Source: a virus (lineage: Duplodnaviria; Heunggongvirae; Uroviricota; Caudoviricetes). From it: DNA of 64,000 nt. The notes under the pieces were generated by a model. It was not told the DNA's origin, did not search any database, and saw only the letters and a list, made by a program, of their open reading frames with translations. Each line of letters starts with the position of its first letter. Position 1 is the stretch's first letter. The stretch lies in the IMG/VR virus record IMGVR_UViG_2654587674_000003; one strand, given 5' to 3'. Of this stretch, positions 735 to 50,790 are shown in pieces. A program made the translations under genes and the position numbers.

Positions 735-1711
735 TTGTTCGGCACTCCCAATATCATTCGTGTTGTGTAGCCTACGCGGTCCTCAAAGTGCGCAACATTT
801 TTTACTATCAGCTTACGGGGCATTGATTCATCAATGCGGTTTTCCTGGTCATAGCGGTATACGATAATCTCTATCACCATTCCCGGTTTTATATCAGGAT
901 TGCCTGCGACTTCTATATCCATTTTGGGGACGAGAGACAGCTGCATATTGCGAAGAGTTTCCATATCAGAGTCGGATATATAACGCACTGGGAGTGAGCT
1001 ATCGCCATATTCGACGTAGCCATCGGTCATGGAATACCCAACAAAACGATATTGATTCTTTGCTGTTGTCGCATGTTCCTGTTGGAGTAGGCGCATTTTT
1101 GACAAAGTGTATTCTGCTTTAGGGTTATTCCCCTCGTAGGTAAATGATGGCGTTTGCTTCATCAGATCAGCCAGGGTGTAAAAGTTAAATTCCCCCCGAC
1201 ATACCCAACACAATGCACCTTTGTCTCGCGCTATCTCCGAAAGCATTTTTGACGGTTTGTCACCGGCATTCAGATGATATGTAACTGCGCGTTTTAGCAC
1301 GCTGCTGGTAATTTTAAGTTTGCCGGAATATGCCTTGAATATAGCGTCTGGTGTTTTGTTGGTATGTAAATTTGTGCGCGGGGAGGGGATCTTAAACCTG
1401 CGCACGTCTTCACTGACAGCAATAACGGTAACAACATCACCAGCCAGCATTGCAGACGTAACAAAGAAATCTGTTTTAAAAGTGCCTGCATTACCGTTTG
1501 GATCGCCCATTTCAGCCACCAGCGATGCACCGTATTTGGCTTTCCAGTCATCAATTACGGTGCCGGTAGCGTCATGAATTTCCAGTTTTAGCAAAGGGGC
1601 TTTGAGGCTGGTTTTTTCTACATATACTGCGGTAAAAATCCAGTCTCGTGGCACTTTGTTATCGTTAATGAGCACTGACTGTAGAAAATATTGTTGTAAC
1701 TCCTGGGCCAC
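731..1711 (-). CDS. phage tail/baseplate-module protein, function unknown
   Basis: 326-aa ORF, 4-nt overlap with the downstream spike-like gene; no recognisable catalytic motif. Confidence 0.35.
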   Translation of the reverse strand: MAQELQQYFLQSVLINDNKVPRDWIFTAVYVEKTSLKAPLLKLEIHDATGTVIDDWKAKYGASLVAEMGDPNGNAGTFKTDFFVTSAMLAGDVVTVIAVSEDVRRFKIPSPRTNLHTNKTPDAIFKAYSGKLKITSSVLKRAVTYHLNAGDKPSKMLSEIARDKGALCWVCRGEFNFYTLADLMKQTPSFTYEGNNPKAEYTLSKMRLLQQEHATTAKNQYRFVGYSMTDGYVEYGDSSLPVRYISDSDMETLRNMQLSLVPKMDIEVAGNPDIKPGMVIEIIVYRYDQENRIDESMPRKLIVKNVAHFEDRVGYTTRMILGVPNK

Positions 1712-1714
1712 TTA

Positions 1715-2482
1715 TCACCCCATAGATATCGAGGTTTCGGTAATAATACGTTTTGCGTCCAACTCCCATGCTGTGATCACGTCTGCAATCACACTTATCG
1801 GCGCTTGTGTGGCATAAATACGCTCTTCTCCAATTGGTGCTGAAACATCCGTAAAGCCGACTTCTTTGGCATCCTGTATCGAGCAAATCAGCGGGACCGG
1901 GACACGAACAAGGTGAGTGGTTGCTTCAAATTGTGTACCTGTCATCAGGCGAAGCCGTGCGCCCAGCGAATTACACATCAGACTCATGGTCGCTTTATCA
2001 GTTGCCATTAACGTAACGTCATACGTCAGAATGGCCTGGGTGTATTCCAGTTCTGCTAAAGGCATTCCGGTATCCGGTTCGCAAAAACTGGCTACTTTTT
2101 TGCGGTCAATCTGCTGATCATCGTTGATATAATTGATATCCATAGTGCGTGAGATATTGACCAGGGGGAGAGCATCCCGGTTAATGTTCTGGTTTTCAGG
2201 TTTTCTCCCTTGCCCGGCATTTGCGCGACGAACTGCTTTAAGAAACTCGATCGCATTGTCGAAACGGGCCACATAGACACGCTCTGCTGGTGGACGATTC
2301 AGGAATGACGCAAAGCGTTTTTCTTCCGGCGCGGGGGCCACCAGTAAGATATCAGAAAAAATGTTGCTGATTAGCGTCGCAAACGCGTTATCCACGTTTT
2401 CAAAGCCCGTGGTCTGGAATTTTCCTGTGCGTGAGGTTTGCCATTCACCTGTTCGCGCCAGGAGGGTTTTATTTGAAGTCAT
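1715..2482 (-). CDS. phage structural-module protein, function unknown
   Basis: 255-aa ORF in the same co-oriented block; position only. Confidence 0.3.
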   Translation of the reverse strand: MTSNKTLLARTGEWQTSRTGKFQTTGFENVDNAFATLISNIFSDILLVAPAPEEKRFASFLNRPPAERVYVARFDNAIEFLKAVRRANAGQGRKPENQNINRDALPLVNISRTMDINYINDDQQIDRKKVASFCEPDTGMPLAELEYTQAILTYDVTLMATDKATMSLMCNSLGARLRLMTGTQFEATTHLVRVPVPLICSIQDAKEVGFTDVSAPIGEERIYATQAPISVIADVITAWELDAKRIITETSISMG

Positions 2483-3282
2483 TCGATCACTCCGTTTTGA
2501 GTCGTATCAAAATTCCTGGCAGGTATGCAGTAGTAAAGCGAACCAACATGCTGTGTGCCGTAGCTAAAAATACGGTGCACGTACCACCAGCGGCGCGCTA
2601 CGCCGTTTACCATCTCTTCATTCCATTCAAGAATTGAGCCGACGGGGACGTTATTTGCTGCAATACGCAGAATCAGAACATCATCGGTTAAGCCATCCTG
2701 CTCACCGTCTGCGTCAATCGCATGGAAAGAGTCACGCCCGTCAGGGTTATCCAGCACATAAACGATTTCAGGTTCCTGGTAAGTCAGTTCGCGTTGGTTG
2801 TTATCCAGTTCAGTGAATGACTCTTCTCCTGTTTCGTCGCTGACTACCCCATATGTGCCAACATCTGGTCGATATAAGAGAGCCTGAAACGCGTCTGGGC
2901 TGGATTCAATAATCAGCATCCAGTCTGCGCGGATTTGGTCGTTAAAGGCTTTATGCCCGTTATAGCGTGCTTTTAACTGTGGAGTCGGTTCTCTGCCAGC
3001 CAGGGAAGATGGAAGTATGGCTATATCTGATTCGCCAGCATCCGGAGTAAGGCCACCGTTGCTATCAGCAAAATTATCATGGCTATCAGCTTTGGCGGCG
3101 GGTTGCTCTTCCAGAATGCTGAATGAATCCGAACCGGTATTGCCATGTTCCGGCGCGCCTCCTGCATTCGCTTCAATCGGCGCTGGCGTTTCTCTCTGCG
3201 TGCTGTCATGTTCTGACTCCTTACTTGCCAGGTTTGCATCGTCAGCAAACCATTCGTCAAAACGGCCCATAAGCATCCTCAA
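2479..3282 (-). CDS. acidic phage protein, function unknown
   Basis: 267-aa ORF with a very acidic N-terminal half; overlaps the downstream gene by 4 nt. Confidence 0.3.
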   Translation of the reverse strand: MRMLMGRFDEWFADDANLASKESEHDSTQRETPAPIEANAGGAPEHGNTGSDSFSILEEQPAAKADSHDNFADSNGGLTPDAGESDIAILPSSLAGREPTPQLKARYNGHKAFNDQIRADWMLIIESSPDAFQALLYRPDVGTYGVVSDETGEESFTELDNNQRELTYQEPEIVYVLDNPDGRDSFHAIDADGEQDGLTDDVLILRIAANNVPVGSILEWNEEMVNGVARRWWYVHRIFSYGTQHVGSLYYCIPARNFDTTQNGVIE

Positions 3283-9354: not shown

Positions 9355-10296
9355 TTAACTAACAATCCAGTCCATAGCAATAACATCCTCTGGAGCTAAA
9401 TCAATAGCATGGATTTTCCCGTCACGGATGGTGCGCCAGTGCTTTCGTGATCCACCTTCGGGCCACACCCATATACCTTCAGGCCAGGAAGAACGACGAC
9501 ACACTGTTGCGTATCCAGTCCTGATCTTCTCTCTGACGGTATGTAGTGACAGATTATCCTTTGGGCTTTCAGGCACAGGATGGTGGATTGCCTGAAACAT
9601 CCCCATCTTTGGATGATACCAGCGTTTATTGCGTGGTTCTGCCTCCGACATCACCTGCTTAAAGGCTTTCCGGAAGGGGGCCAGGGCCACAATGGAACGT
9701 CGCGCAAGCAAACCGTCGGGAGTTAAAAACTCATGCGTATCTGTGGGGATCCGGTAAGCGTTGACCAGGTTGCGGCATTTGGCTTCAGTCAGGCCGCATT
9801 TCGCCGCTAACTGGCGATAGCCAATGTAGCCTTCCGGAATATTGCCTTTCTTTATTTGCTCGACGGTTTCAGCGACTTTGGTCACTTGTGCCGATACTTC
9901 GGCTACCTGGGCATTAACGGCGTTGATCCGGCGTTCATGCTCAAGATGCATTTGCGCCATTTCAGCCAGAATTTCGGCTTTTGATTTTAACTGTACCCGG
10001 GCATTCTCCAGTTCGCGCCAGCGGTCCACCAGCCGGGCGGTGAATTCGGGAGAGAGCTGCGCGACGACGACAATACTATCGCGCTTGCCTTGCTCGCCTT
10101 CGAAGAAATAGGCTTTTGTGTATTTATTAGGGCTAAGTGATTGATTATTCTCAACTGTAGCCAATGGCGTATGTTGGATAACTCCTTTAGCAACAAGTCT
10201 TTCGATGCTGCGTTTAACATCAGAGTGACGACTTCCCACCAGTTCCGCGATCTCAATGCTGGTCATTGTCGCTTTTTGAGAGATGGACAGATTCAT
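9355..10296 (-). CDS. antirepressor-like protein (Rha/Ant-type N-domain), immI-like cassette 1
   Basis: 313 aa; N-terminal MTSIEIAELVGSRHSDVKRSIERL DNA-binding motif; ATG overlaps the stop of the upstream small ORF (TGATG); paralog at 49495..50202. Confidence 0.6.
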   Translation of the reverse strand: MNLSISQKATMTSIEIAELVGSRHSDVKRSIERLVAKGVIQHTPLATVENNQSLSPNKYTKAYFFEGEQGKRDSIVVVAQLSPEFTARLVDRWRELENARVQLKSKAEILAEMAQMHLEHERRINAVNAQVAEVSAQVTKVAETVEQIKKGNIPEGYIGYRQLAAKCGLTEAKCRNLVNAYRIPTDTHEFLTPDGLLARRSIVALAPFRKAFKQVMSEAEPRNKRWYHPKMGMFQAIHHPVPESPKDNLSLHTVREKIRTGYATVCRRSSWPEGIWVWPEGGSRKHWRTIRDGKIHAIDLAPEDVIAMDWIVS

Positions 10297-10511
10297 CAGT
10301 GCACCTCCACGCAGTTCATTGGCAGATTCCAGTAATTGAGGATCTCCATCGCATCAAGAGTGAAGCGAGCAGCAAAAATGCAGGGTTCTTCGGGAAGGTA
10401 TGAGCGCGCCTCTGCTTCGGTAGCAGCCATTACGCAGATATAAAGGTGTTTTTGGCAGGAATAGAAACGCCAGATAAATTCAGAATGAGTTGGGGTAGGG
10501 ATAGTAGCCAT
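10296..10511 (-). CDS. Icd-like small protein (candidate cell-division inhibitor), immI-like cassette 1
   Basis: 71 aa; shares EFIWRF.S.QKH...AATE.EARS motif with ORF 50202..50426; directly upstream of the ant-like gene. Confidence 0.45.
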   Translation of the reverse strand: MATIPTPTHSEFIWRFYSCQKHLYICVMAATEAEARSYLPEEPCIFAARFTLDAMEILNYWNLPMNCVEVH

Positions 10512-10696
10512 ATTGGCAGCCTCCTTTGACTAAGTTAAGGAGCTACCGCGTGAGGTTCCAATCTCAATGGCGGTAGCACTGACTGGGTTGGAACTACCGG
10601 CGTCAAAGGGAACCGGCCTGCCTTTCGGCAGCCCAGCCAGCACTACCATTGATCTCTGAGCTAAACGCTAAGTATGGCTGTGCGATGGCATGACAC

Positions 10697-10785
10697 AAAA
10701 AAAGACGCGTTCGGCGTCTGTGTCGCCTTTGACATTATCCGGGGTTCCAATCCCGGCACCCGTTTTTCTAAGGTGCCGTAGAAAT
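10697..10785 (-). ncRNA. candidate c4-like antisense regulatory RNA of cassette 1
   Basis: minus-strand promoter-like TTGCGC-N18-TATATT near 10793..10826, hairpin whose loop carries GGTTCCAATC, then hairpin plus U-run terminator (10697..10718); same 10-mer and a near-complement lie in the icd leader. Confidence 0.3.
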
Positions 10786-11313
10786 ATACCCCACGATAAT
10801 GCCATGGCGCAACAGTCAGTATTTTATGCTTTGGCGGATTTCTTCCGGGCTTGCTTGCAGGCGTAGGCCATTGCTTTAGCTTTCACTTCATCCAGCTTCC
10901 CGGTGATCACTTCTTTTCCGAGAGTGACAAACCAGTCATAGCAACCGCCAGTAATGTTCTTGATTTGAAAGTTGAGGTAGCGAACAGTCATTTTGACACC
11001 CCCAGCGCGAGTAAAGAATGCAGATTATCGCGTGAGTGGTGGACGACGAGTGATGGGAAAAGACTGTAGTTGTTCATAGTGTAGTGACTCCTTGCTTTCG
11101 GAGCCGCCATTGACTGTTCCACGGTCTGGTGGCGGCGCAATAAAGGCTGGAACACCGTGAGTCAACGGGGGCTTTTCAGCCACCTATATTGCACCGCCAT
11201 AGGTATAGCGGCGGCAATAATACGAAAAACTAAACAGTTTGTCTCAAAAAGTTGACCGGTGTGCCAATCGGTAGTGAATGTACATCGGGGAAATTTACAA
11301 TTCAACTTAAAAT

Positions 11314-11327
11314 GTTAGAAAACTAAT
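11314..11327. promoter_or_regulatory. TGTTAGAAAA box
   Basis: tgttagaaaactaa at the 3' end of ref. Confidence 0.3.
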
Positions 11328-11901
11328 TTATCAATTCAATCGCCATCTGATACAACGCCATTTCATCGGCATTGTGCCGTATGAAATCTGCTTTTCCGCC
11401 TATTTTTCCATCAGCATGAACAGGGACCAGCCAGGGATATTGTTCTCGGACCTCGGCTGGCGCTGCGTACTGGTGGTGCCATTTACACAAAGGGAGGACA
11501 TATTTATGCGCGTTCTCTGCCGTTCTCCCGAAGATATGGTGCAGGGATACTACTGGGCTATGTTGCCCGTGAATATGGCAGGCAATGCAGGGGAGAGTAC
11601 CGATAGCGGTCTGTATCCGGCGTTCATCGGCTGTGAGTGATCTGCCCTTCAGGCCGCGTGACGTGCGTGTTTTTTTGGGCGGAGCGGATACAGCTTTATC
11701 TTTTCTCCGCTGTTCATATTGCTTTGCTTTTTCAATTTTCTTTTGCCGATATTCAGGCGATGCGGCTTTTTCTCTCGCTCGCTGCTGCTGGCGTTGAGCT
11801 TGTTGAAGGCGCTTTGCCCTTTGTTCCTCTCGCCAGGCCGGGTCAGCCAATTTTTGCATGGCTTTTTGTCTCTGTTTCTCCCAATAACTCTGTTTCTGCA
11901 T
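11323..11901 (-). CDS. ref: Ref-like HNH endonuclease (recombination enhancement function)
   Basis: 192 aa; long basic Gln/Arg/Lys-rich N-terminus then HNH-type motif LPCIACHIHG..VSLHHIFGRTA..HKYVLPLCKWHHQYAAPAEVREQYPWLVPVHADG, the architecture I recall for P1 Ref. Confidence 0.7.
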   Translation of the reverse strand: MQKQSYWEKQRQKAMQKLADPAWREEQRAKRLQQAQRQQQRAREKAASPEYRQKKIEKAKQYEQRRKDKAVSAPPKKTRTSRGLKGRSLTADERRIQTAIGTLPCIACHIHGQHSPVVSLHHIFGRTAENAHKYVLPLCKWHHQYAAPAEVREQYPWLVPVHADGKIGGKADFIRHNADEMALYQMAIELIN

Positions 11902-14805: not shown

Positions 14806-15443
14806 GCGAGCTTTACTATCAGACGTTACGTGAACGTTTTTCACCGAAACCAGCGCCTAAATGCTCTGTTTGTGGCGAGGAAATGTCAATGCAGCGCATA
14901 TCTGGATCACATGTTGTTTATGCCTGTTCCGGCATGGAGGACGACGGATGCTTCAAAACTGGACGAACTTATGCTGACGAGCATTACAAAAAATCGCGCA
15001 TAACAGTAGTTGATGATAGCGATCCTGATGTGATTGAACTGCTGGAAGAGAACATGGAGATGGCTCTAACGCTTGAGAAGCTGCGTGTTGAGCTGGAGGC
15101 TGCTAAACAGCGTATTGCCGAATATGAAAGCAATTGCGGGGCGATGGTGGCGGAATGCCAAAGCAAAAAAGCAGCTCTTGAGGCAATTCTTAGCCATTGC
15201 CCAATTAATCATCCAGATATAGACATCGCATGTATAGCGAACATCGCTCATAACGAATTAGGCGGGGCGAAAAGCACTACATCTAAGGCATACCTTGTAG
15301 AAATACAGGCACAAGGGGTGGAGGCATTCGCTTTGACGATGCGCGATACCGGAGATGATCCATTTTTTGATTCCGTTGCTTCTGCTTGCGCGGATGCAGC
15401 TGATAGGTTCGCTGCCCAGCTTCGAAAAGGAGGCAAACAGTGA
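14802..15443 (+). CDS. coiled-coil protein, paralog family member 3
   Basis: 213 aa; N-terminal CSVCGEE Cys pair; C-terminal AAQLRKGGKQ with embedded aaggagg SD for the next gene. Confidence 0.5.
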   Translation: MSELYYQTLRERFSPKPAPKCSVCGEEMSMQRISGSHVVYACSGMEDDGCFKTGRTYADEHYKKSRITVVDDSDPDVIELLEENMEMALTLEKLRVELEAAKQRIAEYESNCGAMVAECQSKKAALEAILSHCPINHPDIDIACIANIAHNELGGAKSTTSKAYLVEIQAQGVEAFALTMRDTGDDPFFDSVASACADAADRFAAQLRKGGKQ

Positions 15444-19555: not shown

Positions 19556-19998
19556 GCAAGATTGATTATCAAAAGCTTCGTGAAATCGCTGAAAAAACAA
19601 AAATTGCTGGTGAAGCACCTGTAATGCCTTTCGATCAGCGAATTAATGCGCTTAACGATTTTATGAAGCACTTTTCGCCAGATATCGCGCTGGCATTGTT
19701 GGATGAACGGGAAAGAAACCAGCAATACATCAAACGCCGCGACCAGGAGAACGAGGATATTGCGCTAACGGTAGGGAAGTTGCGCGTTGAGCTTGAGGCA
19801 GAAAAACAGCGGGCAAAGGATCTGTTTATGGAAAATACTCGGCTTAAGTCAGGTATAGCCGGTCTGATACACCTCGGTATTCGATATGCAGATGTTGATG
19901 TCATGAAAATTGCTGGAGATGCCCAGCTTTCTACCCCATGCACTGACAGCATCATAAACAGCATTGCAACAGGCATTCGCATCAACGGAGGTGAGTAG
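19552..19998 (+). CDS. coiled-coil protein, paralog family member 5
   Basis: 148 aa; LRVELEAEKQRAKDL coiled coil. Confidence 0.45.
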   Translation: MSKIDYQKLREIAEKTKIAGEAPVMPFDQRINALNDFMKHFSPDIALALLDERERNQQYIKRRDQENEDIALTVGKLRVELEAEKQRAKDLFMENTRLKSGIAGLIHLGIRYADVDVMKIAGDAQLSTPCTDSIINSIATGIRINGGE

Positions 19999-20171
19999 TG
20001 CGTGTGGCATGTATTGGCTTGTTACCGTACCCGACTCGTTTTTGGGCTTCTGCGCTAATTGCAAAGCCGTATGTCCTGATGGCTGACAACATCATCCCGG
20101 CACCAAAGCGCCGCCATACCGGTATTGCAGCGGCACGACGAGCAGCAAAGAGACGCAGGAGAGCAAAGCGA

Positions 20172-20348
20172 TGAAAAACCGTAAGGCAAAACGACTTTTT
20201 TTACAGCGACCTGTGCGTGTGGTGGAGCTGGTTATTAGCAACCATAAGATAGCGGTACTCCATCCATTTGGTCAGGTGGCTTTTGCCGCAAAGCGTAAGC
20301 CTACTGCGTCACAGAACAGGCGGAAGAAAGGGTACGCTGTAAGATGAA
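20172..20348 (+). CDS. small basic protein, tandem paralog a
   Basis: 58-aa ORF (not in track) starting MKNRKAK; same N-terminus as the next ORF. Confidence 0.25.
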
Positions 20349-20532
20349 AAACCGTAAAGCAAAGATTCTGTTAGTTCGTAGAAACGCTCCTGGCGTCTGG
20401 CAGTGGGTGAGACTCAGCAACCGACGGATGGGGTTGATGAAATATTACGGGATGATGGATTGTGGTTTTTGCAAAAAGCCCAGCGCGGCGCAAAACCGCT
20501 GGAAAAACCACTTGCGCACTAAAGGAGAGTGA
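20344..20532 (+). CDS. small basic protein, tandem paralog b
   Basis: 62 aa starting MKNRKAK. Confidence 0.3.
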   Translation: MKNRKAKILLVRRNAPGVWQWVRLSNRRMGLMKYYGMMDCGFCKKPSAAQNRWKNHLRTKGE

Positions 20533-20533
20533 T

Positions 20534-20743
20534 ATGGCTATTGCCGCAAGTTACACAATGCATCTCTATTGTGACTGCCGCCAGTGTACGGAAGGTGTAT
20601 ATCCAGTGCCAGACTTCGGTGAGTATATAGGTACGTCATGGGCTGGCTGTGCAAAAGAGGCGCGCAAGGATGGCTGGCGAATAAGCAAAGACAAAACGCG
20701 TGCTTTTGCGCCCGGGCATAAAGTTTTGAGGATTAACAAATGA
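20534..20743 (+). CDS. small Cys-rich protein
   Basis: ATG with aaggag RBS; CDCRQC motif. Confidence 0.35.
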   Translation: MAIAASYTMHLYCDCRQCTEGVYPVPDFGEYIGTSWAGCAKEARKDGWRISKDKTRAFAPGHKVLRINK

Positions 20744-22356
20744 CCACTATTACCAGAGAACAAGCTCTGAAAATTATTGAGGCAGCCGATGAGGTTATTA
20801 GTGCGCTTGCCGGAACTAACGAGGATGTTCACCCTGGTAGCGATAACATGCTACGCCTGTGGGATGACCTGAATGACCGTTACGCGCCGCCGGAAGTTGT
20901 GCGTGAGCTGGCACGAATTGCACTGGCATCGCTGGAAGCAGAACCAGTTAAACGAGTTAACTCAGATCAGATGCGCCGAGTCTGCTTAGAAGCTAATCGC
21001 CATTTAGATAAATATGACGCGATGGCGAAAGAGGTAAATAAGTTGCTTGGACGCATCGCCCCGCCAGCACCGGTAGTGCCTGAAGAAGCAACTCCGGAAA
21101 ACGTAGAAATGCTCTCTGGCTATGTTTCAACGTACAAATTAACCGATAGCGAGCGCGATATTGCTGCCGAAATATGGAACGCCTGCCGCGCCGCCATGCT
21201 TCAGTCCGGAAACTTTCGGGAAAACAAGAATTCGTCAACCAATAATTTTCGGGAAATCGCGGAAACGTCAACCAGCTATCCGGCAATTCCTAGTGAGGTG
21301 TTGTCCGCAATCCTGAAGGTTGCCAGGATTCGTGCCGATTTCGATGATTTTGACGGTGACAGGCGAGGTATCGGTGATTGTCTGGATGAGGCCGAGCAAG
21401 AGCTTATCGTTACCATTAACAAATATGCCAGTCAGTTGGCAGCAGAACCGATAGCGGCTAATGACGTTCGAGAGCAGCAGACAGCCGTTCCGCCAGTTCC
21501 AGAAATACAGGCTGATGTCGCGCAAGCAATTGAAAATCTCAAGCAGAAGTTAGTGGAATGCAATCGCTATAACTACTGCGCAGATGCAGTTAAAGGCGTA
21601 GAGGATGCCAGCCGCGTCTTGGCACTCCAAAATCAAAATATGTCAGCACCGGTAACGCCGGAGGCCATTGAAAACGCAATTGAATATATCCGCAGTATCG
21701 CTTTTCACATCGATGAAGACGATTACCACGGCAAGCATATTGCGTATTTCATGCGACAAGCATTGGCCTGGCTGGAAGGGCATTCATGCAGCGACGACAG
21801 GCTGGGTAAGGCCGACAATCAACCCGCATCTGGTAACCAGGCTGCCGAATCCAATCGCGGTAATGAGTGGACCGGCAATCCTGATATTGATAACGCCATC
21901 ATCATGCTCGACCGCATAGATACGGCGGAAAGTTGCGATGATGACCGTATTGAGGCCGTTAAGGCTGTGTTGCGTAGACTGGCAGGCAACTATCCGGATA
22001 TTCCGGATAGTTCGGTGCCAGCGCCAGGAAAGGGCGTCACCGGTGAACGTATCCGCATTAAGCCGCATGTTTATCGCGAACTGGTTAACCGTCTCCACGA
22101 TACAGCGATCAAGTGTGCTGGCACCCAGCAATTACGAGAAAGAATTAGCCGTGTTTTGGGCGACGTTATTACACCAGATCATCATAAACAAGCCGAGAAA
22201 AGTGGCCTGGAAAGGTGTCGCCTTGAGGCGGCATTAAACATTAAGCCGGGGCATACGCTTGGCATTATTGATGCACTATTGGTTCATAAGATGGCCAGGG
22301 CTTTATTGCCGCTGGTGGCTGAAAAGCATGAGGTGGACCATGCCAACGAAAGCTGA
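20740..22356 (+). CDS. hypothetical protein
   Basis: 538 aa; C-terminal PHVYRELVNRLHDTAIKCAGTQQLRERIS motif shared with ORF 12174..12797. Confidence 0.45.
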   Translation: MTTITREQALKIIEAADEVISALAGTNEDVHPGSDNMLRLWDDLNDRYAPPEVVRELARIALASLEAEPVKRVNSDQMRRVCLEANRHLDKYDAMAKEVNKLLGRIAPPAPVVPEEATPENVEMLSGYVSTYKLTDSERDIAAEIWNACRAAMLQSGNFRENKNSSTNNFREIAETSTSYPAIPSEVLSAILKVARIRADFDDFDGDRRGIGDCLDEAEQELIVTINKYASQLAAEPIAANDVREQQTAVPPVPEIQADVAQAIENLKQKLVECNRYNYCADAVKGVEDASRVLALQNQNMSAPVTPEAIENAIEYIRSIAFHIDEDDYHGKHIAYFMRQALAWLEGHSCSDDRLGKADNQPASGNQAAESNRGNEWTGNPDIDNAIIMLDRIDTAESCDDDRIEAVKAVLRRLAGNYPDIPDSSVPAPGKGVTGERIRIKPHVYRELVNRLHDTAIKCAGTQQLRERISRVLGDVITPDHHKQAEKSGLERCRLEAALNIKPGHTLGIIDALLVHKMARALLPLVAEKHEVDHANES

Positions 22357-29583: not shown

Positions 29584-30621
29584 ATGAGTAAGAAGTCGAT
29601 CGAGAAAGAGTACAAACGGTTCCTGCAAACCGCTGAACGGTGGAAAGAGCTGGTGGTCGCAAACTCTGTTTTCCATGATACCAGTTATGCTGGCGAGGAA
29701 TTCCGCCATGTTGCATTAACGCATGACCAAAACATATTAGAAGAAGCTGAAAAATGTCTTGCTGAATGGAAAGCCTTCGTTGACATGTGCCGCGATGCCG
29801 ACGGCAAAGCGTCGAACATTGTTGAGTCTGTATATTCTCCGATCCCATTCATCATTGAGGACACCAATCAAAGCACGCATGTCGTTGTGCAAAGCGCTAC
29901 AACAACACGTACATTTACACGTGAACAATTGCTAAAAAAATACGACAAAATCATAAAGAAAAGCCTTAAAAATAGGGTTTTTTCTCAAATCGTAGGTGAT
30001 CTTGAAGAAGAACAGCGCTTCTTTGAAGCTGAGCCTGAAGGCGAGATCTACCGGGCGCGTAAAGAGGCATATACAGATGTTGTGCTGACAACAAACATCG
30101 AAGGCAGCAATGCCCTTTCTCGCTTTAGAGTTGGCGCACATGGTGCATTGGTTTTCGCAAGACTACCGAAGACAACGATCCCCGTTGTCAATAATGTTGG
30201 TGAACGCCGGAGCATTACAATTTATTCTGGCGTCGAATCGGTACCTTGCAGCCTTCTCGGCGATTTTAACTTATATCGTGTTCGTGACCTGGAAAAACAC
30301 CAGCCAAGCTATGTTGCGAAGTCGTACATCTTAAGGAACATCGATATTCGCAATGAAAGCCTTAAGCAGAAATCCGCTAAGATGCTGGAGGATGCCGATC
30401 CGGCTATTCGCCATATCATTGAGCGTAAGATACGTACATCACGTGAAGCAATGGCAAGGCTGGATAAAATGGATCTGGAATTGTTAGACGTAATGATGGC
30501 CTCTGGAGACGACCTGACCGGCATTAAACTGAATGAAGCTCGTAAAAAATACGGCAAAGCAATCGAAGAACGTTACGGATACACATTCCCCCAAACGCAG
30601 TACGCCGCGAAGCTCTGGTAA
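29584..30621 (+). CDS. hypothetical protein at the immC-equivalent position (possible immunity repressor)
   Basis: 345 aa; between the rox site and the 3' end of pacB, convergent with pacB, where P1 carries c1; no sequence motif recognised. Confidence 0.3.
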   Translation: MSKKSIEKEYKRFLQTAERWKELVVANSVFHDTSYAGEEFRHVALTHDQNILEEAEKCLAEWKAFVDMCRDADGKASNIVESVYSPIPFIIEDTNQSTHVVVQSATTTRTFTREQLLKKYDKIIKKSLKNRVFSQIVGDLEEEQRFFEAEPEGEIYRARKEAYTDVVLTTNIEGSNALSRFRVGAHGALVFARLPKTTIPVVNNVGERRSITIYSGVESVPCSLLGDFNLYRVRDLEKHQPSYVAKSYILRNIDIRNESLKQKSAKMLEDADPAIRHIIERKIRTSREAMARLDKMDLELLDVMMASGDDLTGIKLNEARKKYGKAIEERYGYTFPQTQYAAKLW

Positions 30622-35440: not shown

Positions 35441-35516
35441 TGGTGGCCCCTACCGGACTTGAACCGGTGACCGTGCGATTATGAGTCGCCAGCTCTAACC
35501 ACTGAGCTAAGGGGCC
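35441..35516 (-). tRNA. tRNA-Ile (anticodon CAU; Ile2/lysidine type)
   Basis: GGCCCCTTAGCTCAGTGGTTAGAGC...CTCATAA...GGTTCAAGTCC...GGGGCCACCA; near-identical to E. coli ileX as I recall it. Confidence 0.85.
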
Positions 35517-37205: not shown

Positions 37206-37281
37206 TGGTGCCGATTAACGGACTCGAACCGCTGACATCCTGCTTACAAGGCAGGCGCTCTACCAACTGAGCTAAACCGGC
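37206..37281 (-). tRNA. tRNA-Thr (anticodon UGU)
   Basis: GCCGGTTTAGCTCAGTTGGTAGAGC...CTTGTAA...GGTTCGAGTCC...ATCGGCACCA. Confidence 0.8.
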
Positions 37282-37283
37282 AT

Positions 37284-37359
37284 TGGCGATGGTGGATGGA
37301 TTTGAACCATCGACCCGTTGATTAACAGTCAACCGCTCTAACCGCTGAGCTACACCATC
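37284..37359 (-). tRNA. tRNA-Asn (anticodon GUU)
   Basis: GATGGTGTAGCTCAGCGGTTAGAGC...CTGTTAA...GGTTCAAATCC...CACCATCGCCA; 2 nt upstream of tRNA-Thr. Confidence 0.8.
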
Positions 37360-49297: not shown

Positions 49298-49498
49298 TCA
49301 AGTCACGATCCAATCATTACCGACTATATCAGCCGTCGATAAATAAACTTCCCGGATCTTGAGTCCATTAATACAAAACCATCCGGTAGTAGAGTAATTA
49401 TCAGGCCAGGCCCATACATCAATACTCCATGCTTTACGGCGGCACACTTCAGCCTGTCCTTCCCTGATTTTTTTTACCGCCTGCATGATGTCCATCAC
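49298..49498 (-). CDS. small protein homologous to the C-terminal tail of the cassette-1 antirepressor
   Basis: 66 aa; EVCRRKAWSIDVWAWPDNYS / DWIVT aligns with residues about 250-313 of ORF 9355..10296. Confidence 0.35.
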   Translation of the reverse strand: MMDIMQAVKKIREGQAEVCRRKAWSIDVWAWPDNYSTTGWFCINGLKIREVYLSTADIVGNDWIVT

Positions 49499-50202
49499 TC
49501 ACCTCCCCAACCGATCACCTGGAATTGCCCCATTTTGGGGTGATACCAGCGTTTTCCTCGGTGTTCAGCCTCCGACATCATCCGGTTAAAAGCATTCATG
49601 AAGGGAGATAAGGCCACGATGGAACGACGCGACAATACCCCCTCTGGAGTTAAAAACTCATGCGTATCGGTGGGAATCCGGAAAGCGTTGACCAGGTTGC
49701 GGCATTTGGCTTCAGTCAGGCCACATTTCGCCGCCAGCTGGCGGTAGCCAATGTAGCCATCTGGCATGTTGCCCTTCTTGATTTGCTCGACGGTTTCAGC
49801 GACCTGGCTAACCTTTGACTCAACAGCATGAAGCCGCTTTTGCTGCTGAACTGCATTTGCAGCCATTGCGGCGATCATCTCTATTTCGGTCAACGGCTGG
49901 CGTACTTGTTCTTCCAGTTCGCGCCAGCGGTCCACCAGCCGGGCGGTGAATTCCGGAGAGAGCTGCGCAACGACAATAATGCTGTCTCGTTTGCCTTGCT
50001 CGCCTTCGAAGACGTAAGCCTCGACACTACGGCGTAGTCCTAAGTTATTGATTTTTTCGAAAACCTGCAATGCAGGAAGTTGAATAACTCCAGATTTAGC
50101 CAGGCGCTCTATTGATATTTTTACGTTATCTGGACGACTTCCCACCAGCTCCGCGATCTCAATGCTGGTCATTGATGGCTTTTCAAGAATGCAGATATCC
50201 AT
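49495..50202 (-). CDS. antirepressor-like protein, immI-like cassette 2
   Basis: ATG at 50202 overlapping the icd-like stop (TGATG); MTSIEIAELVGSRPDNVK N-domain; long stretches identical to cassette 1. Confidence 0.55.
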   Translation of the reverse strand: MDICILEKPSMTSIEIAELVGSRPDNVKISIERLAKSGVIQLPALQVFEKINNLGLRRSVEAYVFEGEQGKRDSIIVVAQLSPEFTARLVDRWRELEEQVRQPLTEIEMIAAMAANAVQQQKRLHAVESKVSQVAETVEQIKKGNMPDGYIGYRQLAAKCGLTEAKCRNLVNAFRIPTDTHEFLTPEGVLSRRSIVALSPFMNAFNRMMSEAEHRGKRWYHPKMGQFQVIGWGGE

Positions 50203-50426
50203 CAGTGTGCCTCCGCAATTCCGGGATGGGTAATATTGCGATACCAAGGATTAGTGTTTGGTTGTGATGAAGTAGAGAAACGGCCAGTCAGGACGCCATG
50301 TTGATCAGGGATCAGAGAACGGGCTTCTTTTTCAGTTGCGGCAATTGCGAAGTGATCGCAGTGTTTTTGCAGGGAGTGGAAACGCCAGATAAATTCCGGG
50401 CGCGAGCAAGGATTGGCATTAACCAT
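50202..50426 (-). CDS. Icd-like small protein, immI-like cassette 2
   Basis: internal ATG chosen (track ORF extends to 50624); EFIWRFHSLQKH...AATEKEARS motif. Confidence 0.4.
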   Translation of the reverse strand: MVNANPCSRPEFIWRFHSLQKHCDHFAIAATEKEARSLIPDQHGVLTGRFSTSSQPNTNPWYRNITHPGIAEAH

Positions 50427-50583
50427 AGTTACGGCCTCATTCGTAGGTTTAACAACCTGCGCCCCGCTGCTAAACGGGTGGCAGGACGTGACGGGGTTAG
50501 CAGACTGGCACGAATGAAACCAGCAGGCCGAAGCCTCCCCATCACGCCCCACCATAATTCGGGCGTAACGTGGTTTTACGGAC

Positions 50584-50700
50584 ACAAAAATACCGCAATA
50601 TCGGATATCTGCGGTTGTCCGCATTCGTATTCAGGCTGCTAAACCCGGTCGCAGAATTTGCTACGACGACATGAATATAAGCCTGAAAACATGGAAGATC
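50584..50700 (-). ncRNA. candidate c4-like antisense RNA of cassette 2
   Basis: conserved gacacaaaaa plus hairpin terminator (50584..50615) as in cassette 1; loop-candidate GCTGCTAAAC repeated in icd leader (50467..50476) with partner gttagcag. Confidence 0.25.
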
Positions 50701-50757
50701 AACTAAAAATTTCAGCAATGGATGATTTCAGTCGATGATGCAGATCATACATTCCGA

Positions 50758-50790
50758 TTTAGAAACAGCAAATTAATTTTCTAACACAAA
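50758..50790 (-). promoter_or_regulatory. TTTTCTAACA box pair at the head of cassette 2
   Basis: tttagaaac-N10-ttttctaacacaaa. Confidence 0.4.

Follow-up and report, generated by a model that had tools for sequence, protein, structure and literature searches.

A stretch of 64,000 nucleotides (nt) of viral DNA (Caudoviricetes; IMG/VR record IMGVR_UViG_2654587674_000003; the whole of it is called the window below) carries on its minus strand two gene cassettes, cassette 1 at 9355..10850 and cassette 2 at 49298..50790, in which a gene for an Icd-like protein runs into a gene annotated as an antirepressor. Each cassette contains a 10-mer that stands before icd and again farther upstream, with a near-complementary partner in between, and the arrangement raises the question of which RNA acts on which target. 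A preliminary description of the DNA regarded the cassettes as c4-type antisense immunity switches whose specificity would lie in short complementary elements. The present analysis points to two complete modules of the immI type in a D6-like phage-plasmid, each composed of one or more promoters, a sense element (a1/b1) with a terminator, the antisense RNA C4, a leader with the targets a2 and b2, icd, and a coupled gene of the Rha/Roi family; a probability of about 80% is given to this reading.

The whole window was scanned against Rfam at gathering thresholds, and four relevant matches were obtained, all on the minus strand: two to C4, one to isrK and one to c4-a1b1. The same RNA families were found at homologous sites in the phages and elements D6, P1, P7, RCS47, P4, 673R5 and an Stx2 phage, and the annotated immI region of P1 aligned one to one with the parts Op51, P51a, P51b, a1, b1, c4, a2, b2, icd and ant. 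The diagnosis of c4-type switches was borne out by the C4 matches (77.1 and 71.9 bits for cassettes 1 and 2), while the roles first assigned to the two RNA segments have to be exchanged. In the preliminary description, the antisense repressor was the terminated RNA farther upstream (with its end near 10697 or 50584), and the stretch before icd was no more than a leader, with a target 10-mer and its partner close by. It is true that a good intrinsic terminator closes the upstream element, which is probably a discrete RNA of ~80 nt and has the 10-mer in common with the leader; however, its copy has the same sense as the leader copy and so is unable to pair with it, both C4 matches fall in the supposed leader, and the target-mimic families isrK and c4-a1b1 fall on the upstream RNA, an order (a1, b1, c4, a2, b2) equal to that annotated in P1. 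An antisense role of the upstream RNA is accordingly very hard to credit, and the near-complementary partner, taken for a leader element, belongs to C4, as its a' element.

The repeats were located by exact string search. The cassette 1 10-mer GGTTCCAATC has just two plus-strand copies, at 10554 and 10743, and its partner GTTGGAAC lies at 10587, as described. The terminator string GACACAAAAA shared by the cassettes likewise has no plus-strand copies other than those at 10692 and 50581. In cassette 2, the 10-mer GCTGCTAAAC is present at 50466 and 50635 (an unrelated copy lies at 15099) and its partner GTTAGCAG at 50496, one base lower than first given. The distance of about 190 bp to the upstream copy applies to cassette 1 (189 bp), the value for cassette 2 being 169 bp.

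Both C4 sequences folded into the structure of the family, in which a long closing stem surrounds two hairpins; the loop of the second hairpin contains b', the single-stranded 3' part contains a', and both elements are unpaired. The minimum free energy (MFE) was -46.5 kcal/mol (z -5.0) for cassette 1 and -46.2 kcal/mol (z -5.4) for cassette 2. Past the closing stem, the sequences continue into a tRNA-like 3' tail (GCCA / ACC). The mature form of the cassette 1 RNA would extend over about 10569..10647, as judged from the annotated boundaries of P1 c4 and the alignment, and that of cassette 2 over about 50477..50553 (77 nt) by homology to the same RNA. In each cassette, a':a2 and b':b2 give 7 and 8 contiguous pairs, and b2 covers the Shine-Dalgarno sequence of icd. 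Only the a set of these recognition elements had been recognized in the preliminary description; the b set, in which b' (10602..10609 and 50510..50517) matches b2 and b1, had been overlooked. The Icd homologues share 22 invariant residues, and the icd-1 protein is 56% identical to P1 Icd and 37% identical to icd-2.

To compare these elements among relatives, 110 loci were collected from IMG/VR via their Icd proteins and combined with eight annotated phage loci. Hand-written regular expressions overlooked most variants of C4, and a covariance model derived from 10 sequences of C4 took their place and located C4 in all collected loci. The covariation alignments comprised distinct modules, 12 of the P1 type and 30 of the IsrK type (42 in total). 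In the intermolecular helices, 99.8-100% of 168-450 cells were standard pairs (Watson-Crick or G-U): a':a2 and b':b2 were 100% paired in the 30 IsrK-type and in the 12 P1-type modules, and a1:a' and b1:b' were 99.8-100% paired. Changes on both sides were observed at 8-9 of the 14-15 helix positions, none of 500 shuffles reached the observed pairing or covariation score, and sliding the partner by 1-3 columns lowered the pairing to 25-58%, the signal being gone at a slide of one base. The pattern of repeat and partner is far beyond chance, and the earlier view that specificity resides in short complementary elements holds.

The same data bear on the proposal that the 10-mers are direct-repeat binding sites for a protein, such as a repressor, with incidental complementarity. 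They are indeed exact direct repeats 169-189 bp apart and lie near promoters, but they covary with an inverted partner, and a dispersed 17-mer distinct from them (see below) is a better operator candidate. Considering the covariation together with the slid and shuffled controls, protein-binding direct repeats are ruled out as an explanation for all practical purposes. In an allele check of 133 model matches from 119 sources, a' and b' were exactly matched by a2/b2 and a1/b1 with the exception of one IMG/VR locus, L037 (UViG_2778261639_000014, 1224..1508), whose a1 (UUGAGAC) belongs to another allele than its own a' and a2 (GUUCCAA / UUGGAAC). This natural recombinant suggests either that the match of a1 is not strictly required or that the exchange is recent.

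The loops of the two cassettes differ at >=4 of 7-8 positions at both elements. Cognate pairs had summed duplex energies of -24.7 kcal/mol in cassette 1 and of -28.2 kcal/mol in cassette 2, and between the cassettes the sums were -11.6 and -8.9 kcal/mol, values that are crude since they refer to short excised segments and ignore the geometry of kissing loops. As the loops differ and the predicted cross-pairing is weak, each C4 is expected to act on its own operon only, and the two cassettes are predicted to be mutually orthogonal, in line with the different specificity elements that had been described for them. The anatomy, the family membership, the three-way complementarity with its covariation and the predicted orthogonality were all computed here. 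The coordinates of the features are collected in Table 1.

Table 1. Features of the two C4 modules, of the third C4-like module and of the dispersed 17-mer in the window
Feature	Position	Strand	Basis or remark
Cassette 1			
Promoter-like site, TTGCGC-18-TATATT	10783..10812	-	read from sequence; start near 10776
IsrK-type RNA	10698..10776	-	Rfam isrK RF01394, 61.3 bits (gathering score 50)
a1 target mimic AUUGGAAC	10744..10751	-	hairpin loop of IsrK-type RNA (fold)
b1 target mimic GUCAAAGG	10726..10733	-	in IsrK-type RNA
Intrinsic terminator ending IsrK-type RNA	stem 10703..10719, then U-run	-	terminator scan
C4 antisense RNA	10566..10653	-	Rfam C4 RF01695, 77.1 bits (gathering score 45)
b' CCUUUGAC	10602..10609	-	hairpin-2 loop of C4
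a' GUUCCAA	10588..10594	-	3' single-stranded bulge of C4
icd leader with C4 targets	10520..10562	-	a2 and b2
a2 AUUGGAAC	10555..10562	-	in hairpin loop; UUGGAAC pairs with a'
b2 GUCAAAGG	10523..10530	-	overlaps Shine-Dalgarno AAGGAGG (10520..10526)
icd-1, 71-aa Icd-like protein	10296..10511	-	list of open reading frames; phrog_1426
Cargo gene, 313 aa, Rha/Roi family, annotated antirepressor	9355..10296	-	PF09669, phrog_63
Cassette 2			
Candidate C1-type operator TGTTAGAAAATTAATTT	50770..50786	-	overlaps -35 of upstream promoter-like site
Upstream promoter-like site, TTGCTG-16-TATGAT	50744..50771	-	sequence; position of P1 Op51/P51a
Second promoter-like site, TTGATC-17-TATATT	50674..50702	-	promoter scan; position of P1 P51b
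a1b1 element	50581..50680	-	Rfam c4-a1b1 RF03163 at 50628..50680, 52.2 bits (threshold 46.7)
a1 UUAGCAG	50636..50642	-	sense copy of target
b1 ACGAAUG	50622..50628	-	sense copy of target
Terminator hairpin and U-run (UAUUUUUGUGUC)	50581..50592	-	fold shows hairpin, U-run
C4 antisense RNA	50474..50559	-	Rfam C4, 71.9 bits (gathering score 45)
b' UCAUUCGU	50510..50517	-	in C4
a' CUGCUAA, P7 allele	50497..50503	-	in C4
icd leader with C4 targets	50435..50473	-	a2 and b2
a2 UUAGCAG	50467..50473	-	pairs with a'
b2 ACGAAUGA	50437..50444	-	overlaps Shine-Dalgarno GAGG
icd-2, 74-aa Icd-like protein	50202..50426	-	same extent as D6 orf19
Cargo gene, 235 aa, Rha/Roi family, annotated antirepressor	49495..50202	-	same extent as D6 orf18
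65/66-aa reading frame coupled (TGATG) to cargo gene	49298..49498	-	phrog_7385, unknown function; D6 orf17
Third module			
Operator-like 17-mer	11313..11329	-	operator motif
Promoter-like site, TTGAAT-17-TACATT	11277..11305	-	sequence
C4-like RNA	11125..11204	-	Rfam C4, 40.2 bits, below gathering score 45; E 3e-6 in 600 nt
29-aa reading frame	10988..11077	-	preceded by a2 UGGAACA and b2 GAGUCA (b2 on Shine-Dalgarno)
55-aa reading frame, coupled to the 29-aa frame	10824..10991	-	phrog_7786, unknown function
Dispersed 17-mer sites	35, 48, 11313, 11963, 17203, 17216, 28146, 29556, 33989, 38575, 39824, 50770, 51977		window

The arrangement suggests how the modules may work. In P1, C4 and Icd control ant (PMC8201110), and the heteroimmunity of P1 and P7 rests on c4 and is set by its loops (PMC12197685). 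By homology with these phages, the transcript of each operon would itself give rise to a C4 RNA of about 77-79 nt, excised by RNase P and able to repress in trans. Pairing of a2 with the a' bulge of this RNA, and of b2 with its b' loop, would block the translation of icd. In both cassettes, the stop codon of icd overlaps the start codon of the cargo gene by one base in the sequence TGATG (10296 and 50202), as had been described, and coupling and polarity would then silence the downstream cargo gene in lysogens. How the RNAs are processed, that translation is blocked, what a1/b1 do and that the cargo acts as an antirepressor are inferences. As the a1/b1 RNA has the polarity of the target, it can pair with C4 and not with the leader, and since a1/b1 are followed by an intrinsic terminator in both cassettes, the upstream element may plausibly exist as a discrete RNA with a length of about 80 nt and a 3' end near 10697 or 50584. 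This RNA may act as a decoy titrating C4, or as a site like that of P4 seqA, where pairing with C4 enforces termination before the operon.

The second of these roles leads to a P4-style mechanism, conceivable above all for cassette 1, in which C4 is mainly a transcription-termination factor: pairing with a1/b1 on the nascent RNA stops transcription at the IsrK terminator and also limits the synthesis of C4, pairing with a2/b2 terminates it downstream, and a translation block is not primary. The upstream element of cassette 1 matches isrK, a family that also matches P4 seqA, a1/b1 of both cassettes, like those of P1, stand before an intrinsic terminator, and the P4 mechanism has been summarized in these terms (PMC4825925, PMC3632133). 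IsrK was recognized as the counterpart of seqA and C4 as that of CI of P4 in an "IsrK-C4 immunity system" (Barquist et al. 2013, PMC3632133). On the other hand, the position of b2 exactly on the icd Shine-Dalgarno sequence and the coupled reading frames fit the translational mechanism of P1. A primarily P4-style action is therefore judged unlikely, though far from negligible, and termination of this style and translation block of the P1 style are not exclusive. In Gifsy-1, IsrK switches on coupled downstream reading frames in trans, and an RNA of ~80 nt complementary to IsrK, STnc1160, is processed from read-through transcripts (PMC4825925). Action of the short RNA in trans, on the long transcript or on the C4-like RNA, is known from experiments in Gifsy-1 and P4 only.

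Several points weigh against the reading of two complete immI-type modules, in addition to the crudeness of the duplex energies. All the RNAs, their ends and their processing are deduced from sequence. The role of a1/b1 is unsettled in the model systems too: in Gifsy-1, co-expression of the C4-like RNA did not blunt the effect of IsrK (PMC4825925), which argues against a simple decoy role of a1/b1, and the a1 of L037 is unmatched to its own a'. The promoter of cassette 1 departs far from the consensus, and no operator-like site belongs to it, the nearest one lying upstream of the third module. Moreover, the cargo proteins have no detectable similarity to P1 Ant1 (BLASTP E 0.19); they belong to the Rha/Roi family of DNA-binding proteins, and "antirepressor" is an annotation.

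The cargo proteins of cassettes 1 and 2 are 65% identical to each other and were assigned to Phage_pRha (PF09669), phrog_63 and the Roi-like proteins, so that the former naming of these reading frames as ant-like is not upheld. The C-terminal ~60 amino acids of the cassette 1 protein (9355..9540) are a homologue of the 66-aa reading frame of cassette 2, fused in frame (E 6e-16), a gene fusion or split between the paralogues. Pfam and NCBIfam gave no match for Icd, for the 66-aa reading frame or for the small reading frames of the third module.

The promoter regions of the two modules were inspected for control sites. The isrK match of cassette 1 starts 7 nt past the -10 hexamer of its promoter-like site, which is below the reporting level of the consensus promoter scan. 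Cassette 2 has two promoter-like sites at the positions of P51a and P51b; the second aligns with the annotated P1c4 promoter of P1, and the upstream one is overlapped by a copy of the 17-mer. Its upstream element has no isrK match in the Rfam scan, matching c4-a1b1 instead. The C1 operator of P1, ATTGCTCTAATAAATTT, is absent from the window even when as many as 3 mismatches are allowed. A P1-like operator variant read upstream of cassette 2 was dropped because it is unique in the window, and the dispersed, asymmetric 17-mer TGTTAGAAAAYTAATTT was found instead, with 13 sites in the window versus 0.5 expected. These sites include two overlapping inverted pairs and lie upstream of cassette 2, ref, the gene for a Cre-like recombinase and that for a distant C1 homologue (29584..30621), one of them just upstream of the last. 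The 17-mer is a good candidate for a C1 operator of the D6 type that would take the place of the P1 operator sequence.

The cassette 1 region matches positions 73868..75767 of phage D6 (MF356679) with 90% DNA identity, and the cassette 2 region matches 19641..21540 of the same record with 94.5% identity (megablast). The gene order around cassette 1 (ref, orf86, orf85, icd, antirepressor, pmgF) and around cassette 2 (repL, icd, antirepressor, orf17, hydrolase, darB) is as in D6, and >=80% of the cassette 1 region is present in 92 plasmids, mostly of E. coli and Salmonella. On account of the D6 matches, the shared gene order and the plasmid matches, the window is taken to be a D6-like phage-plasmid. 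Three tRNA genes were also found in it by Rfam, all on the minus strand (35444..35516, 37209..37281 and 37287..37359).

Cassette 1 might in principle be a decaying duplicate or an imported remnant without regulatory role, considering its weak promoter, the lack of an operator-like site and a cargo that duplicates that of cassette 2 at 65% identity. All of its parts are intact, however, and D6 as well as no fewer than 16 other D6-like genomes have both cassettes, with cassette 1 in an unchanged position. Its loop alleles also diversify together with both target copies, a joint change for which selection on pairing is needed; the remnant explanation is very unlikely.

The alleles of the recognition loops vary among these genomes. 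At least six combinations were seen among P1-type and at least seven among IsrK-type modules, and 17 D6-like genomes with both cassettes displayed 11 combinations of the four loops, some of which reproduce loops of P1 or P7 exactly; several of these genomes have the exact P1 loops in cassette 2. All four loops of the window differ from those of D6; the a' of cassette 2 is the P7 allele, and its b', UCAUUCGU, is unlike those of P1, P7 and D6. Among D6-like IMG/VR contigs (L093-L100, L104, L105, L112), many have exactly the loops of P1 c4 (UCACUAAC / CUGUCAA) in cassette 2, and others combine P1 with P7 loops. These shared loops predict immI cross-immunity of D6-like elements with P1- and P7-like phage-plasmids. 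In another IMG/VR locus, L043, two identical C4 copies of the 673R5 type (1359..1446 and 2925..3012) lie 1.5 kb apart; a tandem duplication may be responsible, or an artefact of the assembly.

A third module (window 10824..11329, minus strand) lies in tandem directly upstream of cassette 1. Its C4-like RNA, which falls below the Rfam gathering score, obtained 35.9 bits with the covariance model built here and an MFE z of -3.6. The RNA is conserved in D6-like loci; the module was found only in D6 among the phage records, and its AU-rich terminator hairpin shows compensatory changes in relatives. The loops and targets of this RNA are invariant in 13 variants, giving no covariation for its putative pairings, which are therefore unproven. 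The a1-like loop upstream of it is no match for the RNA's own a', and this a' has GUUCCA in common with the a' of cassette 1 in the window, though not in D6.

Taken together, these features permit a tentative picture in which D6-like phage-plasmids run a small network of C4-type locks. Two of the locks would be canonical and orthogonal, and a third, cryptic C4-like RNA (11125..11204) would guard two tiny reading frames and might cross-regulate cassette 1. The (a', b') code would reassort freely, so that immunity specificity would amount to a combinatorial barcode, one that the P1, P7 and D6 lineages exchange by recombination. Such a scheme is a possibility of limited likelihood.

Existing annotation treats these RNA genes differently. 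In RefSeq, the PGAP pipeline placed a 39-aa "ash family protein" coding sequence exactly over the C4 RNA gene of cassette 1 (window 10530..10649, minus strand; 1764..1883 of collected locus L119), with no noncoding RNA there, and the GenBank record of D6 has a hypothetical reading frame, orf84, on the opposite strand over the same RNA. C4 RNA genes are systematically mis-annotated or overlooked. The main value of the present results lies in correcting this annotation in widespread phage-plasmids of E. coli and Salmonella, where the C4 genes are unannotated in D6 and one is called an ash family protein by RefSeq. In addition, the clean three-way covariation turns the family into a handy natural collection of orthogonal antisense/target pairs with two loops each, which could serve synthetic regulation and could help to predict mutual exclusion or induction among P1-, P7- and D6-like elements.

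Compared with known systems, cassette 2 is an orthologue of P1/P7 immI, with which it shares the layout of a candidate operator and two promoter-like sites, a1, b1, a terminator-like hairpin, C4, a2, b2 on the Shine-Dalgarno sequence and an icd gene with an overlapping start, and its RNA region and icd start (373 query bases) are 86-88% identical at the DNA level. Unlike immI, it is followed by a Rha/Roi-family gene and not by Ant1/Ant2, it lies downstream of repL whereas the P1 module lies upstream of kilA-repL, and its operator-like sequence is other than the P1 C1 operator. Cassette 1 is a diverged paralogue of the IsrK-C4 type known from P4, Gifsy-1 and Stx phages: like P4 seqA-CI, Gifsy-1 isrK-orf45(STnc1160)-anrP and the Stx and lambdoid loci, it combines a terminated RNA of the isrK family with a C4-family RNA behind it and with coupled reading frames. 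The same two Rfam families are adjacent in P4 and in Stx2 phage F039, and both are annotated in the F039 record. In contrast to those modules, cassette 1 drives icd and a Rha/Roi protein inside a P1/D6-type phage-plasmid that has a P1-type immI too; the loop sequences of P4 and the Stx phages differ from its own, and the P4 module stops the transcription of replication genes (PMC4825925). A link of IsrK to the a1/b1 of C4 was considered as a new finding and rejected, having been made by Barquist et al. 2013 (PMC3632133); Hershko-Shalev et al. 2016 cite P4 seqA/CI (PMC4825925), and the record of an Stx2 phage annotates both RNAs side by side.

The supposition that two such cassettes in one genome were undescribed for P1 or D6 likewise does not hold. 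Phage D6 and D6-like plasmid prophages (e.g., pYU39_89) carry both cassettes at the same loci and in the same gene order, the D6 record differing in that reading frames and no RNA genes are annotated, and a second antisense-RNA (c4)/icd region of D6-like plasmids was remarked on in 2019 (PMC6799933). An IsrK-type C4-icd-Rha/Roi cassette also stands beside a canonical immI in RCS47, JL22, vB_EcoM-673R5 and pTZ20_1P. In RCS47 and 673R5, this second cassette lies between pacB and c1, and JL22 matches the cassette 1 RNA region at a second locus; an ant insertion in P1-like phage-plasmids has been noted (PMC6906374). The RCS47-type insertion differs in genomic position from cassette 1 of the window, which lies at ref-pmgF, and in part in its loop alleles, RCS47 having b' in common with that cassette but not a'. 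Neither this kind of system nor a layout with two cassettes is thus new, and a new kind of mechanism is not revealed. What is new is the window's combination of loops, the predicted orthogonality at the RNA level, the reassortment of alleles and the third, sub-threshold C4-like RNA.

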